Below, piece by piece: positions 7,314 through 20,285 of a stretch of 21,601 nt of DNA; positions within the stretch are counted from its first letter, which is position 1; every line of letters begins with the position of its first letter. This DNA is from Thermostichus sp. DRC_bins_24 (GTDB lineage Bacteria; Cyanobacteriota; Cyanobacteriia; Thermostichales; Thermostichaceae). The translations under genes and the position numbers were made by a program. Location: NCBI GenBank assembly GCA_039794845.1, contig JAUQVK010000060.1:1-21601 (forward strand), given 5' to 3'. A model generated the notes under the pieces. That model saw only the letters and a program-made list of their open reading frames with translations. It searched no databases and was not told the origin of the DNA.

Positions 7314-7722
7314 AATTGCCCCCTTTCATCACCAAACCACACACACCATCACTCTAGTTTGCACCGTCTTACAGCCCTTTCGCCGGCCACGTGTAACAAC
7401 CGTAAAAGCTGAGATCCACTCTCTAGAGGGCCAGTGCTCCGCACCTCGCAGAGGGAGAACAGGAAGCACAACCCCTGGCCGTAGAAAACCCGCACAAGGA
7501 CTGTAGTTTTAAGCCGTAGTCTTAATCGGTTGTGTTCCAGAGCGTCTTTGCTCAATTGTAGGAGGTGCCTTGACGGTGTTTGGAGATCTTGAGCAGGAGT
7601 CTGTCCAGATCATCACCGCAGTGACAGCCGTGCAGAGCAGAGATGGGGCCTGTGGAAAACCGTCTTATCTTTGCCCCTCACTTTGCGATACTGCTAAAGG
7701 TGATGTTGAGAACTACAACATT

Positions 7723-9267
7723 ATGGCGATGCAGGATGTGGCCGGCGGTCAGCTTCGCTCTCTTCAACAGCTGACGAGCCCACCGGGATCTTGGTTGTGT
7801 CGAACCTGTTCTGCTCCCTACGGTCTCCTTTTGGGTTTGCTCTGGGCCGCTCCTGCCTTTGCTCAACCGGAACCGCCGGATCCTGCTGCCTTCGCCCTGC
7901 CCGATAGTCGCGAGATCCTCACCCCCGCTCTACCCCCCACCTTATCCGTACCTCCTGACGCTGCCCCCGCCCCTGCGCCGGTGTTGGAGGGATCCCTGAC
8001 GGCAGAAGAACTGGTGGTGCCCCAATCTCCCCTGGAGGTACGCATCGAGCGCAGGGAGGGTTTATCTCTACAGGAGGCCCTGGATCTCGCCGTTGCCCGA
8101 AACCCTGCTGTTCAACAGGCAGAACTGGCGGTACAACGAGCCGAAGCAGGCATTGCCCTGGCGCAGGCCGCCTATGCCCCCACCCTCTCCAGCACTGCCA
8201 ACTACCAATACAGCGATGCGCCCTCCCCAGGCGGTGGGCCCAGCCGCGAATCCCACTCCCTCTCGGCCAGCGTGGTGCGGGTGGAGTATACCGCCTTTGA
8301 CAGTGGCCTGCGGGAGCAGAACCTGAACGTAGCCCAAGAAGCTCTGCGCATCGCCCAGTTGCAACTGCAGCAAACCCTGCAAACCGTGAAGCAAGCTGTG
8401 GCCAACGCCTACTACGATCTGCAAAGCTCAGATGCCAGCGTTGCCATTAACCAAGCTGCCATCGAAAGCTCTGAAGCCACCCTTCGGGATGCCCAGGCCC
8501 GAGAGCGAGCCGGGCTGGGTACCCGTTTCGAGATTCTGCAGGCGGAAACGGAGTTGGCCAACAATCGACAAGCCCTGTTGGCGGCCCAAAACACCCAGCA
8601 ACTGAATCGTCGTCGCTTAGCCGAACTGCTCAACTTCCCCAGCCCCACCGATGTGCTGGCCAGTGATCCCATTCAACCGACAGGGGAATGGGATCTCAGC
8701 TTGGAAGAGACCATCATCGCTGCTTTTGCCCAACGGCAGGAACTGGAGATTCAGCGGCAACAACTGGAGCAAGCCCAGAGCCGTGTTCGCCTGGCGGAAG
8801 CCAGCAACGGCCCACGCATCGGCCTATTCGCCACCCTCGACATCGCCAACGATTTCAAGGCCAGCCGCGACAGTTTCGATGTGGGCTATTCGGCGGGGGC
8901 CAATTTCAGCTTCACCTGGTTTGACGGGGGAGAGGCAGAAGCCCAAGCCCGCCAAGCTCAGATCGATGGACAAGTGGCCGTGAGCAATTTCGTCGAAGCC
9001 CGCAATGAGATTCAACGGGGGGTCGAAGAAGCTTTCCTCACCCTCAGCTCCAGCCGCGAGCAGATCGATTCGGCCAAGGTGGCCATTGCCTCGGCAGAAG
9101 AAAGCCTGCGCCTAGCTCGGTTGCGGGTGCAAGCGGGGGTGGGCACCCAAACGGAGGTGATCAACGCCGAGACCGCCCTCACCACCGCCCGTGGCAACCT
9201 TTCCAATGCCGTCATCGCCTACAACCGTGCCCTTATTCAGCTGCAACGGGCCATCGGCACCCTTTAA
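7723..9267 (+). CDS. TolC family outer membrane efflux protein (start uncertain; ORF open from 7570)
   Basis: Signal-like segment LLLGLLWAAPAFA, LSLQEALDLAVARNP, and two OEP repeats (ANAYYDLQ...GLGTRFEILQAE; AEESLRLARLRVQAGVGTQTEVINAE). Confidence 0.9.
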   Translation: MAMQDVAGGQLRSLQQLTSPPGSWLCRTCSAPYGLLLGLLWAAPAFAQPEPPDPAAFALPDSREILTPALPPTLSVPPDAAPAPAPVLEGSLTAEELVVPQSPLEVRIERREGLSLQEALDLAVARNPAVQQAELAVQRAEAGIALAQAAYAPTLSSTANYQYSDAPSPGGGPSRESHSLSASVVRVEYTAFDSGLREQNLNVAQEALRIAQLQLQQTLQTVKQAVANAYYDLQSSDASVAINQAAIESSEATLRDAQARERAGLGTRFEILQAETELANNRQALLAAQNTQQLNRRRLAELLNFPSPTDVLASDPIQPTGEWDLSLEETIIAAFAQRQELEIQRQQLEQAQSRVRLAEASNGPRIGLFATLDIANDFKASRDSFDVGYSAGANFSFTWFDGGEAEAQARQAQIDGQVAVSNFVEARNEIQRGVEEAFLTLSSSREQIDSAKVAIASAEESLRLARLRVQAGVGTQTEVINAETALTTARGNLSNAVIAYNRALIQLQRAIGTL

Positions 9268-9636: not shown

Positions 9637-9642
9637 TATAGT
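9637..9642 (+). promoter_or_regulatory. Candidate -10 element (TATAGT) for the leader/DAHP synthase transcript
   Basis: 5/6 match to TATAAT about 60 bp upstream of the leader ATG; no clear -35. An alternative is TAGCAT at 9681-9686. Confidence 0.3.
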
Positions 9643-9702
9643 CATCTCATGTAGGTTCTGAACGAACTTGCTTGGTTTCCTAGCATTACCTTGTTCTTCG
9701 CT

Positions 9703-9777
9703 ATGTCTTTGCGCGCCGCCTTTTTTGGCTACTTTACCTTCCCCTGGCATCGACCAGGGCAGATGGGTGACGCGTAA
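9703..9777 (+). CDS. Aromatic amino acid-rich attenuator leader peptide (24 aa, MSLRAAFFGYFTFPWHRPGQMGDA)
   Basis: Manual translation from ATG 9703 to TAA 9775-9777. Codons 7-15 are TTT TTT GGC TAC TTT ACC TTC CCC TGG (4 Phe, 1 Tyr, 1 Trp), directly upstream of a terminator and the DAHP synthase. No obvious Shine-Dalgarno. Confidence 0.8.
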   Translation: MSLRAAFFGYFTFPWHRPGQMGDA

Positions 9778-9817
9778 ACGATAACCAAAGTTTACTTAAG
9801 TCAGTCCTGAAGCCCTG
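9742..9817 (+). promoter_or_regulatory. Alternative leader RNA structures: 1:2 hairpin and 2:3 antiterminator
   Basis: CCCTGG 9742-9747 pairs with CCAGGG 9754-9759. Alternatively CAGGGC 9755-9760 pairs with GCCCTG 9812-9817 (the terminator 5' arm), with nested TGAC 9768-9771/GTCA 9800-9803 and GTAAAC 9774-9779/GTTTAC 9790-9795. Confidence 0.7.
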
Positions 9818-9839
9818 AGCCCAGTGCCAGGGCTTTTTT
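9810..9839 (+). terminator. Intrinsic terminator (attenuator) upstream of the DAHP synthase
   Basis: AAGCCCTG 9810-9817 pairs with CAGGGCTT 9828-9835, with 2 extra GC pairs inside and a T6 run at 9834-9839. It lies between the leader ORF and the structural gene on the same strand. Confidence 0.8.
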
Positions 9840-9893
9840 AATGGCCTGATGCTGCCCAGTCAACCCTACTTGCTCTCCATGAAGGACCTTTCC

Positions 9894-10964
9894 ATGCCCC
9901 CCCAAACCGACAACTGCAACATCCAGGAGGTGACTCCCCTGATCGCCCCTAGCTCGGTCAAAGCCGAATTGCCCCTGACGGAAACCGCCGCCAAAGGGGT
10001 GCTCTCAACTCGGCAGGCCATCCGCAACATCATCCACGGACGGGATCCCCATCGTCTGGTGGTGATCGTCGGCCCTTGTTCCATTCACGACCCGGAAGCG
10101 GCCCTAGAGTATGCCCACCGTCTGAAGCGGGTGGCGGATCAAACCCAGGAGCACCTGGTGATCGTCATGCGCACCTACTTCGAGAAGCCCCGTACCACCG
10201 TGGGGTGGAAGGGCTTGATCAACGATCCCCACCTGGATGGCTCCTGTGACATCGCAACGGGTTTGAAGCTAGCCCGTTCGATCCTGTTGCGGGTTAACGA
10301 GATCGGGCTAGCTTGTGCTACCGAAATGCTGGATCCGGTTACCCCTCAATACACGGCAGACTTGGTCAGTTGGGCGGCAATCGGGGCCAGAACCATCGAA
10401 AGCCAAACCCACCGCGAGATGGCCAGTGGCCTTTCAATGCCCGTTGGCTTCAAAAACGGCACCGATGGTCGGCTGCAAATTGCCCTTAACGCCATTCTCT
10501 CCGCCAGCCATCCCCACAGTTTTCTGGGCATTGGGCAGGATGGCATGACCGCCCTGATCAAAACCACCGGCAACCCGGATCGACACATCGTCCTGCGGGG
10601 TGGGGGCGGCAAAACCAACTATGGCCCCGAAGATGTGGAGCGGGCGGCGCTGTTGATGGAGGAGCAAGGGATCCCCCGCTCGGTGATGGTGGACTGTTCC
10701 CACGACAACTCCAACAAAGACTACCGCAACCAGGGAGCCGTCTGTCGGGAGGTGCTGCGGCAATATCGCGCCGGTCAACGGGCCTTGATGGGGGTGATGC
10801 TGGAGAGCAACCTCAACCCTGGCAAACAAACCTGGTGTGAAGGGGCCCCCCTCAAACACGGTGTCTCCATTACCGATGGCTGCATTGGCTGGTCAGAGAC
10901 CGAAGATCTGTTGCAGGAGATGGCGGCCACCGTCGCTGGAGAAAGCTTGGCCCTGAGCCATTGA
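9894..10964 (+). CDS. aroG: 3-deoxy-7-phosphoheptulonate (DAHP) synthase, class I-alpha (AroF/G/H-like)
   Basis: Motifs VGPCSIHD, MRTYFEKPRTTVGWKGLINDP, IGARTIESQTHREMASGLS, GFKNGTDG, VDCSHDNS, GVMLES and SITDGCIGW. Start placed at ATG 9894 (AAGGA upstream; MPPQTDNCNIQEV resembles class I-alpha N-termini); the ORF is open from 9849. The specific isozyme cannot be assigned. Confidence 0.95.
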   Translation: MPPQTDNCNIQEVTPLIAPSSVKAELPLTETAAKGVLSTRQAIRNIIHGRDPHRLVVIVGPCSIHDPEAALEYAHRLKRVADQTQEHLVIVMRTYFEKPRTTVGWKGLINDPHLDGSCDIATGLKLARSILLRVNEIGLACATEMLDPVTPQYTADLVSWAAIGARTIESQTHREMASGLSMPVGFKNGTDGRLQIALNAILSASHPHSFLGIGQDGMTALIKTTGNPDRHIVLRGGGGKTNYGPEDVERAALLMEEQGIPRSVMVDCSHDNSNKDYRNQGAVCREVLRQYRAGQRALMGVMLESNLNPGKQTWCEGAPLKHGVSITDGCIGWSETEDLLQEMAATVAGESLALSH

Positions 10965-11138: not shown

Positions 11139-11585
11139 ATGGATTTGCAAATCCCAACCAGCGTAGACAGCAACGGTCACCAGCCCTACCCGGATCCCAG
11201 CCAGGTTTCTTCCCGAGCACCGGAGCAGTTGCGGGATCGCTTGATCGTGTCCGGCCTGCGCTACTACGGCTACACCGGCTTTAATGAAGCGGAACGAGCC
11301 TTGGGACAATGGTTTGAGGTGGACTTTGAGCTATGGGCGGATCTGCGTCCGGCGGCTTTTAGCGGCCAACTGTGCGACACCCTCGACTACCGCTCTGCCG
11401 TGGCCGGGATCGCGGAATTGGTGAAAAGCAATCAGTTTGTCTTGATCGAGAGTTTGGCGGAGGCGATTGCCGAGATGGTGCTGCGCGAGACGGGGGCCAG
11501 CAAAGCTAAGATCCGATTGACCAAGTGCAATCCGCCGATCCCAGATTTAACGGGGCGGGTGACGCTGGAACTCGTTCGTCCCTGA
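11139..11585 (+). CDS. folB: Dihydroneopterin aldolase
   Basis: DRLIVSGLRYYGYTG..EAERALGQWFEVD, DTLDY, LIESLAE, KCNPP. About 30 aa N-terminal extension; GAGGA precedes the ATG. Confidence 0.93.
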   Translation: MDLQIPTSVDSNGHQPYPDPSQVSSRAPEQLRDRLIVSGLRYYGYTGFNEAERALGQWFEVDFELWADLRPAAFSGQLCDTLDYRSAVAGIAELVKSNQFVLIESLAEAIAEMVLRETGASKAKIRLTKCNPPIPDLTGRVTLELVRP

Positions 11586-11593
11586 GGACCCCA

Positions 11594-12178
11594 TTGGTGG
11601 CTACCCTACAACTGGCTTCTCGCACCTCTGAGGCTTGGATCCAACAGGCCACCCAGTACATCGACCTGATTTTGCTAGACCACGCCAACTGCGAGAAAAA
11701 AGCGGCAGGCAATGCCCTCAGTCTGTTGTTTCGCTACCCCTGCAACGGGCAACTGGTGGAAACCCTCTCCCCTCTGGCCCGAGAGGAATTGCAGCATTTT
11801 GAGCGTGTGCATCGTCACCTGCAGCGGCTCGGGATCCCGGTGAAACCCCTATCTGCCGCCCCCTATGCCAGCCGCCTCAACCAACACCTGCGCCGCCAGG
11901 AACCGGATCATTTGCTGGATGCTCTGCTGTTGGCAGCGATCATCGAAGCGCGCAGCCATGAACGGTTGGGCTTACTGGGGATCCATGCCCCAGACCCGGA
12001 ACTGCGGCAGTTTTACCTGTGGTTGACGGCTGCCGAAGAGCGACACTTGCACCTGTACCTGAACTTGGCACTGGCCCATTTTCCTGCTGAGCCGGTGCAG
12101 CAACGTTTAGACGCACTCTTGCAGATAGAAGCCGAGATTTTGTCCACGCTTCACCCCGAGCCTCGTGTTCACAGCTAA
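11594..12178 (+). CDS. miaE: tRNA-(ms2io6A37) hydroxylase, ferritin-like di-iron enzyme
   Basis: LLDHANCEKKAA, LAREELQHF, IIEARSHERL, EERH and C-terminal RVHS. Start is probably TTG 11594 or GTG 11597, after GAGGA at the folB stop. Confidence 0.92.
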   Translation: MVATLQLASRTSEAWIQQATQYIDLILLDHANCEKKAAGNALSLLFRYPCNGQLVETLSPLAREELQHFERVHRHLQRLGIPVKPLSAAPYASRLNQHLRRQEPDHLLDALLLAAIIEARSHERLGLLGIHAPDPELRQFYLWLTAAEERHLHLYLNLALAHFPAEPVQQRLDALLQIEAEILSTLHPEPRVHS

Positions 12179-19445: not shown

Positions 19446-20285
19446 ATGACCACAACTTTCCCCACCCCCCCTTTGACGGTTAGCGGCGACGAGCTGGCAG
19501 AACGAGGCTGGAAAACTGAGCGCTGGGTTGATGCCGATGGGAATGAACGGTTGATTCAAGTGCCCCTGACCCCAGAGGAATTTCTGCATCCTGAGGAGGG
19601 TTACCACTTGCCCAGCAATACCTTTCACGACCGTGTCAGCAGCGATTTGAAAGACATGCTCCGGCGGCGCTATGCGGCTCAACCCGATGTGGGCGTATTT
19701 GGCGATCTCTTGATTCAGTGGGGTATTGAAGGGTTGGGAAATCATTGCCCAGATGTGTTCGTGGTGTTTGGACTTCAAGACCGGGATCGGCAGCGAGAGA
19801 GCTTTCAAGTGCTTACAGAAGGAGTTAAGCCCAGCTTGATCCTGGAGGTGGTGTCGCCCCGTTATCGAAAAGAAGACCGCCAAGACAAAGTTTGGGACTA
19901 TGCTCGGGCTGGGGTGGAAGAGTATATCATTTTCGATCGCCGCTGGCAGCGGGGGATTTGGATCGATGAAGTCTTGGGTTACCGCCTCAGACAGGGGCTC
20001 TACCTGCCGCTTACCCCAGATGAAGAGGGACTGATCCTAAGCGAACAAACCGGACTGAGAATGGGTTTACAAGAGGGCCGCGTGCTGCTGGTGGATGCGC
20101 AGACGGGGGAAAAGATACCCACCGCTCAGGAATGGGAGGCCATTGCTCTGCAGGAGCGCCAAAGAGCCGACCAGGAACGACAAAGAGCTGACCAAGAGCG
20201 CCAAAGAGCCGACCAAGAACGAGAGCGGGCGGAGCGACTGGCACAACGGCTGCAAGCCTTGGGTATTGACCCGGATAATCCCTAA
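19446..20285 (+). CDS. Uma2 (DUF820) family PD-(D/E)xK putative endonuclease
   Basis: CPDVFVVFG, ILEVVSP, K..DYARAGVEEYIIFD, then a C-terminal QERQRAD repeat tail ending RLQALGIDP. Confidence 0.92.
   Translation: MTTTFPTPPLTVSGDELAERGWKTERWVDADGNERLIQVPLTPEEFLHPEEGYHLPSNTFHDRVSSDLKDMLRRRYAAQPDVGVFGDLLIQWGIEGLGNHCPDVFVVFGLQDRDRQRESFQVLTEGVKPSLILEVVSPRYRKEDRQDKVWDYARAGVEEYIIFDRRWQRGIWIDEVLGYRLRQGLYLPLTPDEEGLILSEQTGLRMGLQEGRVLLVDAQTGEKIPTAQEWEAIALQERQRADQERQRADQERQRADQERERAERLAQRLQALGIDPDNP
20151..20234 (+). repeat. In-frame 21-bp tandem repeat (QERQRAD x3 plus one degenerate copy)
   Basis: caggagcgccaaagagccgac / caggaacgacaaagagctgac / caagagcgccaaagagccgac / caagaacgagagcgggcggag. Confidence 0.9.

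Follow-up and report, generated by a model that had tools for sequence, protein, structure and literature searches.

The locus examined here raises the question of whether a short open reading frame (ORF) and a hairpin located upstream of a DAHP synthase gene in Thermostichus sp. DRC_bins_24 form a leader-peptide attenuator, a mode of regulation for which we found no published cyanobacterial case. The window, i.e. the whole stretch of DNA analysed, comprises 21,601 nucleotides. An earlier sequence-only reading of it had proposed ribosome-mediated transcription attenuation of the DAHP synthase gene, here termed aroF, in response to scarcity of any of the three aromatic amino acids. The computational results presented below make it very probable that such an attenuator controls aroF, with some doubt attached to the sensing of Trp.

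The leader, the terminator and the DAHP synthase gene

The features of the locus are as follows:

9637-9642, forward strand: putative -10 hexamer TATAGT, with transcription presumably starting near 9649, upstream of the leader
9703-9777, forward strand: leader ORF of 24 codons (ATG at 9703, TAA at 9775-9777), with homologues in 23/23 genomes of the family
9721-9747, forward strand: candidate sensing codons F7 F8 (G9) Y10 F11 (T12) F13 (P14) W15, assigned from conservation in 23 leaders
9742-9747, forward strand: segment 1, CCCUGG, comprising the Pro and Trp codons and forming the 5' side of the protector helix 1:2, which is extendable to 9734-9770
9754-9760, forward strand: segment 2, CCAGGGC, partner of either segment 1 or segment 3
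9755-9817, forward strand: antiterminator 2:3 (9755-9760 with 9812-9817, plus inner helices), -24.2 kcal/mol
9811-9839, forward strand: intrinsic terminator 3:4 (9811-9817 with 9828-9834) followed by U6 at 9834-9839, -13.9 kcal/mol
9894-10964, forward strand: aroF, type I-alpha DAHP synthase of the aroF/G/H family (TIGR00034 and PRK12755 above cut-off)

The two components on which the proposal was built, a 24-codon ORF with six aromatic residues in nine positions and a GC-rich hairpin with a T6 run ahead of the DAHP synthase gene, are both present. Codons 7-15 of the leader encode four Phe, one Tyr and one Trp. At the aromatic codon rate of this genome (7.6%), six or more aromatic codons in nine are expected with a binomial probability of 1.3e-5 per nine-codon stretch, and among the 97 sites in the genome where a short ORF and a terminator precede a long ORF, only the leader at 9703 attains this density. 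No Shine-Dalgarno sequence precedes the leader ATG, as had been pointed out earlier. A TTG at 9691, in frame upstream of the ATG, would allow for an optional 28-codon form, which is not conserved. A TATAxT hexamer occurs 65-93 nt 5' of the Tyr codon in 12/12 genomes of the genus, the -35 element at the putative promoter of the window is weak, and a strict promoter scan of the window returned no site for a leader promoter. Between the putative -10 hexamer and the leader start an additional 8-bp hairpin (9651-9671) is found, carried on an insertion of ~28 nt that is missing in the closest relatives.

The aroF product scores 483 bits against TIGR00034 (cut-off 173). Its longest ORF begins at 9849, and translation probably starts at 9894, behind the motif AAGGA (9882-9886), a start suggested by the Met and the purine motif that the orthologues have in common. 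No other protein of the genome, which is 99.93% complete, matches PF00793, and neither TIGR01361 (type I-beta) nor PF01474 (type II) has a match there. The protein is identical to AroG at C61, R92, K97, R165, K186, R234, H268, E302 and D326, which we take to be the catalytic and metal positions of that enzyme. At P147, G211 and Q214 (AroG numbering), chosen by us as presumed allosteric-pocket positions, it is like the Tyr-sensitive AroF of Escherichia coli and unlike the Phe-sensitive AroG, and AroG position 211 presumably corresponds to G226 of yeast Aro4. The G226S substitution is described in an excerpt of PMC9733642 as turning Aro4 from Tyr to Phe sensitivity. The window enzyme thereby resembles DAHP synthases of the Tyr type with a single effector.

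Downstream of aroF, a separate intergenic region precedes folB (TIGR00525) and, after it, a miaE-like gene (the two together at 11139-12178). Further along the window, an ORF at 19446-20285, which we assume to be of the Uma2-like endonuclease type, ends in a repeated QERQRAD heptad (20150-20250).

Conservation of the leader in the family

Orthologues of the enzyme were retrieved by protein search from 40 of 41 genomes, and 30 of the returned loci were examined. All 23 loci of the window's family, which belongs to the hot-spring Thermostichales, have a leader and terminator ahead of the orthologue (68-100% identity). The pair is missing from the seven loci of other families among these 30, and no leader of the window's kind was found in ten further other-family loci. 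The genes flanking the element on its upstream side, and their orientations, vary widely among the 23 family loci.

The alignment of these upstream regions, which had been put forward as a check of the proposal, was performed and bears it out: the ORF, its aromatic core and its frame are conserved in 23/23 loci and, with the three alternative helices, recur in three other bacterial groups, and compensatory changes occur in the 2:3 and 3:4 helices. The leader starts with ATG in 21 loci and with GTG in the remaining two (L017 and L018). An open ATG or GTG situated 18-39 nt before the Tyr codon is found in the Tyr frame in 23/23 loci and in each of the other frames in 0/23, and the distance from start to Tyr differs among loci by whole codons only. 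Y10, F11 and W15 are invariant, codon 8 is Phe in 21/23 leaders, and codon 13 is occupied by Phe (16), Tyr (4) or Ser (3). The core codons TAC, TTT, TGG and GGG are identical at the nucleotide level in all 23 leaders, so that RNA structure could account for part of this conservation.

Alternative RNA structures

The region 9640-9850 folds with a z-score of -2.99, one of 200 shuffled sequences folding equally well, and none of 4227 Rfam families matches the window at its gathering score. The terminator arms are AGCCCTG (9811-9817) and CAGGGCT (9828-9834); the hairpin also contains a bulge and an inner helix of 2 bp, and the inner helices of the antiterminator include the pairing of 9774-9779 with 9790-9795. 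In the free RNA of the window the fold shows the 1:2 protector. Across an alignment of 34 rows, with which a 27-row alignment agrees, the 1:2 helix is paired in 99.5% of cells (one-sided G-U changes only), the 2:3 helix in 93.7% (seven cells with both partners changed, a value matched by 0/500 shuffles) and the 3:4 helix in 95.1% (three pairs changed on both sides), counts which are inflated since the rows from outside the family, in both alignments, were picked by a pattern containing helix letters.

The effect of a ribosome was approximated in a masked-fold model, in which the transcript is cut before segment 4 and its 5' part is masked as by a ribosome. For the window, the probability of 2:3 rises from 0.04 in the free RNA to 0.96-1.00 with the ribosome at Y10, F11, F13 or W15; once the ribosome has moved beyond G20, it is 0. 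Stalling at Phe or Tyr codons switches 33-34 of the 34 rows to 2:3, and no row remains switched past codon 20. The result for Trp depends on the assumed footprint: 27-33 of the 34 rows switch, 33 of them with footprints of +11 to +13, and with a +16 footprint the probability for the window drops to 0.69 when folded at 37 °C and to 0.38 when folded at 55 °C. The earlier claim that stalling at any aromatic codon permits read-through thus holds up in this model for Phe and Tyr and is footprint-dependent for Trp. Eighteen of the 34 rows already prefer 2:3 at equilibrium with no ribosome present, so that default termination in these RNAs would depend on the order of folding.

Distribution outside the family

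A scan of GTDB genomes with a leader pattern returned 35 matches, 22 of which precede a DAHP synthase gene: 16 in the window's family, three in Planctomycetota, two in Binatia and one in Myxococcales. In metagenomes, 25/32 matches precede the enzyme. The matches lacking it (13/35 in genomes, 7/32 in metagenomes) were treated as chance, except for one, which is a true leader cut by a contig end. Two metagenome contigs carry variant leaders; that of L077 lacks a stop codon and is continuous in frame with the DAHP synthase, and that of L067 has its stop two codons past the Trp codon, within the 1:2 loop.

A covariance model (R1) was built from the leader-terminator RNA and searched on DNA only. 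It has a single match in the window's genome and none in 150 other Cyanobacteriota genomes; as other aromatic leaders do exist in this phylum, this null result means that the RNA family was not found there, rather than that attenuation is absent. With the seed genomes included, R1 matches occur in 16/101 Binatia, 4/151 Planctomycetota and 7/151 Myxococcota genomes. Twenty-four of the matches are new, and each of the 22 that precede a DAHP synthase gene has a leader holding Phe, Tyr and Trp codons. When the enzyme was used as the starting point instead, an aromatic leader and terminator were found in 12/30 Binatia loci (three more being partial) and in 11/29 Myxococcota loci. All 23 of these leaders likewise contain the three aromatic residues, the Trp occurring in varying contexts (PW, TW, FW, GW, RW, YW), and seven of them had been missed by the TGG-bearing model. 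Many close Binatia enzymes, including L143 at 71% identity, have no detectable leader. The RNA preceding related DAHP synthases in Planctomycetota, Binatia and Myxococcota belongs to the same family as that of the window.

Related arrangements were also observed upstream of other genes. At one of the two remaining new R1 matches, in a planctomycete (G307; L125:1501-1640), a leader with a run of Phe codons, lacking Tyr and Trp, and a similar terminator precede a chorismate-mutase/pheA-like gene. The R1 match at L126 precedes a tRNA array: here (L126:1508-1648; G301:C1:3007250-3007396) a Tyr/Leu-rich short ORF and a strong U-tailed terminator are located before a tRNA-Leu/tRNA-Tyr array of eight tRNAs, and a similar Tyr/Leu ORF and terminator occur before tRNA-Leu/tRNA-Tyr genes at L262 (G644:C1 near 1945277, minus strand). 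This arrangement, which is kept in 2/21 genomes searched and has SD-like purines 5' of the ATG, looks like a leader-peptide attenuator of tRNA genes; simple folds of it contained no antiterminator.

Origin of the enzyme and its leader

The relationships of the DAHP synthases were inferred from a quick tree of 81 rows and a careful tree of 32 rows. The approximately unbiased (AU) test was performed on 32 of the 81 rows under LG+G4, leaving out the long branches L128, L130, L142 and L026, the partial L115 and the near-copies L006 and L008. The enzymes of the window's family form one group in both trees, and the 21 attenuator-bearing enzymes fall on one side of a branch with 100/99 support. Across this branch, the I-alpha enzymes of the sister family in the same order group with those of other cyanobacteria, and joining all cyanobacterial I-alpha rows is rejected (AU p=6.8e-6). 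The grouping of the family's enzyme with non-cyanobacterial proteins suggests co-transfer of leader and gene. Most likely, the two entered the ancestor of the family together by horizontal transfer, which is the simplest reading. A type I-beta enzyme is present in 144/151 Cyanobacteriota but in only 7/23 members of the window's family, and none of these seven I-beta loci has a leader of the window's type. We lean slightly towards a wider scenario, in which a trivalent attenuator-enzyme cassette crossed phyla, replaced the original enzyme of a thermophilic cyanobacterial family that branches off early and now acts as the main transcriptional control of its shikimate pathway.

Proposed mechanism and alternative explanations

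The window element has the leader, terminator, alternative helices and stall geometry of the trpL/pheL class, and the proposal of ribosome-mediated attenuation is well supported by the conserved ORF, frame and helices and by the flip to the antiterminator in the masked-fold model. With aromatic amino acids plentiful, the ribosome would reach the stop codon at 9775 and cover segment 2, allowing the 3:4 helix to form and transcription to terminate near 9838. In untranslated RNA, the 1:2 helix would form, and termination would ensue as well. A ribosome stalled at codons 7-15 would hide segment 1, leaving segment 2 to pair with segment 3, so that no terminator forms and aroF is transcribed. The attenuator would hence report the charging of tRNA-Phe and tRNA-Tyr, and probably of tRNA-Trp, to the only DAHP synthase of the genome.

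The least certain part of this model is the role of Trp. In most local folds the UGG codon is paired at least in part; it lies six nucleotides before segment 2 and pairs with it in 34/34 rows; because it doubles as an arm of the protector, its conservation alone is no proof that Trp is sensed. The same attenuator could therefore respond to Phe and/or Tyr only, with the Trp codon kept for the protector arm and the open frame, as is also suggested by the weakened switch with a +16 footprint at Trp and by the C. glutamicum leader aroR, which has both Phe and Tyr codons and responds to Phe alone according to an excerpt of PMC11802643. Against this, Trp is retained in changing contexts in all 23 leaders found from the protein side, seven of them outside the reach of the TGG-bearing model, the Phe-only leader before the chorismate-mutase-like gene (L125) dispenses with Trp, and footprints of +11 to +13 let nearly every row switch at this codon. 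We regard restriction to Phe and/or Tyr as a realistic but clearly less likely variant; given that the attenuator operates, Trp is probably sensed too, with less certainty than Phe and Tyr.

Other explanations receive far less credit. That a nascent aromatic peptide arrests the ribosome together with a small molecule, as in TnaC, or that control is partly translational, would fit the strongly fixed Y-F-x-x-P-W spacing in the family and the weak U tracts of the family loci L019-L021, but is improbable, as peptide order is free outside the family while aromatic content is kept, and ~55 nt separate the terminator of the window from the probable ribosome-binding site of aroF further downstream. 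Marginally less credit still is given to a switch thrown by a ligand or an RNA-binding protein (riboswitch- or TRAP-like) with an incidental ORF: several codons are nucleotide-invariant and the cyanobacterial copies have no SD sequence, but this explanation would leave unaccounted for the confinement of start codons to the Tyr frame, the exchange of Phe and Tyr at codon 13, the way in which leader composition follows the downstream gene (L125), the SD-like motifs seen by eye ahead of the leader ORF in several copies from outside the cyanobacteria and the lack of any Rfam match. The TolC-family gene on the same strand upstream (7570-9267) could finally suggest that the ORF has arisen by chance and that the hairpin merely ends tolC-like transcription, which is extremely improbable for an element that is kept while its upstream neighbours and their orientations vary widely, recurs in three other bacterial groups and is the sole site of its aromatic density among 97. 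A leader-peptide attenuator sensing aminoacyl-tRNA scarcity thus remains the favoured explanation.

Other putative attenuators in cyanobacteria

Uniqueness of the aromatic attenuator within the cyanobacteria was considered and dropped. In other cyanobacteria, 12/12 second, lower-scoring copies of the type I-beta enzyme picked for inspection (L239-L250) are preceded by an aromatic leader and terminator, 11 of them by two. These tandem leaders contain Phe, Tyr and Trp codons, and the I-beta enzymes that follow them are short; only 1/37 of the main I-beta copies has an aromatic leader and terminator. With R1 scores of 12-21 bits, the tandem leaders are regarded as a parallel to the window element and not as established members of its RNA family. 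They resemble the window in combining an F/Y/W leader and a terminator before a DAHP synthase, and differ in being tandem and before a second copy, where the window has a single attenuator before its sole, I-alpha enzyme. A leader with all three aromatic residues, initially thought unusual, is the rule both in the RNA family and before these I-beta copies.

Within the window's genome, no cognate leader with a terminator precedes trpE, ilvB, leuA, hisG or pheA, so that the mechanism appears to be confined to the presumably imported aroF. An ORF ending in five Leu codons before leuA was rejected as a leader, as it recurs there in only 2/24 family loci. As a crude proxy for runaway transcription, 6/55 terminator-like stems lie within 12 nt of a stop codon (median distance 41 nt), and this rough count gives no sign of uncoupling. 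The one sequencing run searched yielded DAHP synthase fragments of other organisms and no leader sequence, a result that speaks neither for nor against the proposal.

Comparison with known systems and biological significance

Like trpL and pheL of E. coli, which excerpts of PMC11802643 describe in these terms, the window element combines 1:2 / 2:3 / 3:4 logic with sensing codons inside segment 1 and a U-tailed terminator. Unlike it, the E. coli leaders each respond to a single amino acid and regulate branch enzymes, and pheL (locus L099) scores only 11.6 bits with R1. The DAHP synthases of E. coli are controlled by TyrR and TrpR and divided among three isozymes, as opposed to one leader on the sole enzyme in the window; since this enzyme looks single-effector, the role that falls to three isozymes in E. 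coli may here be taken by the multivalent leader.

The sequence-only reading had regarded leader-peptide attenuation as not established in cyanobacteria and a leader with all three aromatic residues as unusual, and of these only the former agrees with the literature searched. An attenuator of a DAHP synthase gene has been published for the aroR-aroF locus of C. glutamicum (Neshat et al. 2014; PMC11802643, PMC4046766, both excerpted), where, as in the window, an aromatic leader peptide precedes the enzyme and transcription attenuation is ribosome-mediated. That leader, from a different phylum and compared here by description only, contains Phe-Tyr-Phe and responds to Phe and not to Tyr according to the portions available, whereas the window leader has its four Phe, one Tyr and one Trp. 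A uORF with a terminator (uORFC-13-1) is predicted exclusively upstream of aroF in Acholeplasma (Tenericutes; 24 representatives), with a U run coding for at least one Phe in the excerpted description (PMC8632094) by which it is set beside the window. Attenuators of DAHP synthase genes are further predicted for Vibrio, Thermus and Shewanella in excerpts of PMC1173090 and PMC2659441. For cyanobacteria, the part of a 2016 paper available to us (PMC4833913) calls reliable data on attenuation absent, and our search found no published leader-peptide attenuator; Lopatovskaya et al. 2010, the Merino attenuator database and supplementary files might hold a prediction. A family of leaders and DAHP synthases spanning phyla was likewise not found described in the literature searched, supplements lying outside that search. 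What appears to be new here is a trivalent leader on the sole DAHP synthase of a genome, in a phylum for which no report was found, and apparently imported together with its gene.

The window leader makes it testable whether one leader sums three aromatic tRNA signals, and, being compact, conserved and present in a genus from which isolates have been sequenced, it does the same for the coupling of ribosome and RNA polymerase in cyanobacteria. It is also a probable case of a cis-regulator moving between phyla with its enzyme, and is relevant to raising shikimate flux in these thermophiles. If the proposed mechanism is correct, the window leader and the I-beta leaders would together imply that transcription and translation are coupled tightly enough in cyanobacteria for leader-peptide attenuation, and that this phylum has recruited such attenuation at the DAHP synthase step at least twice.
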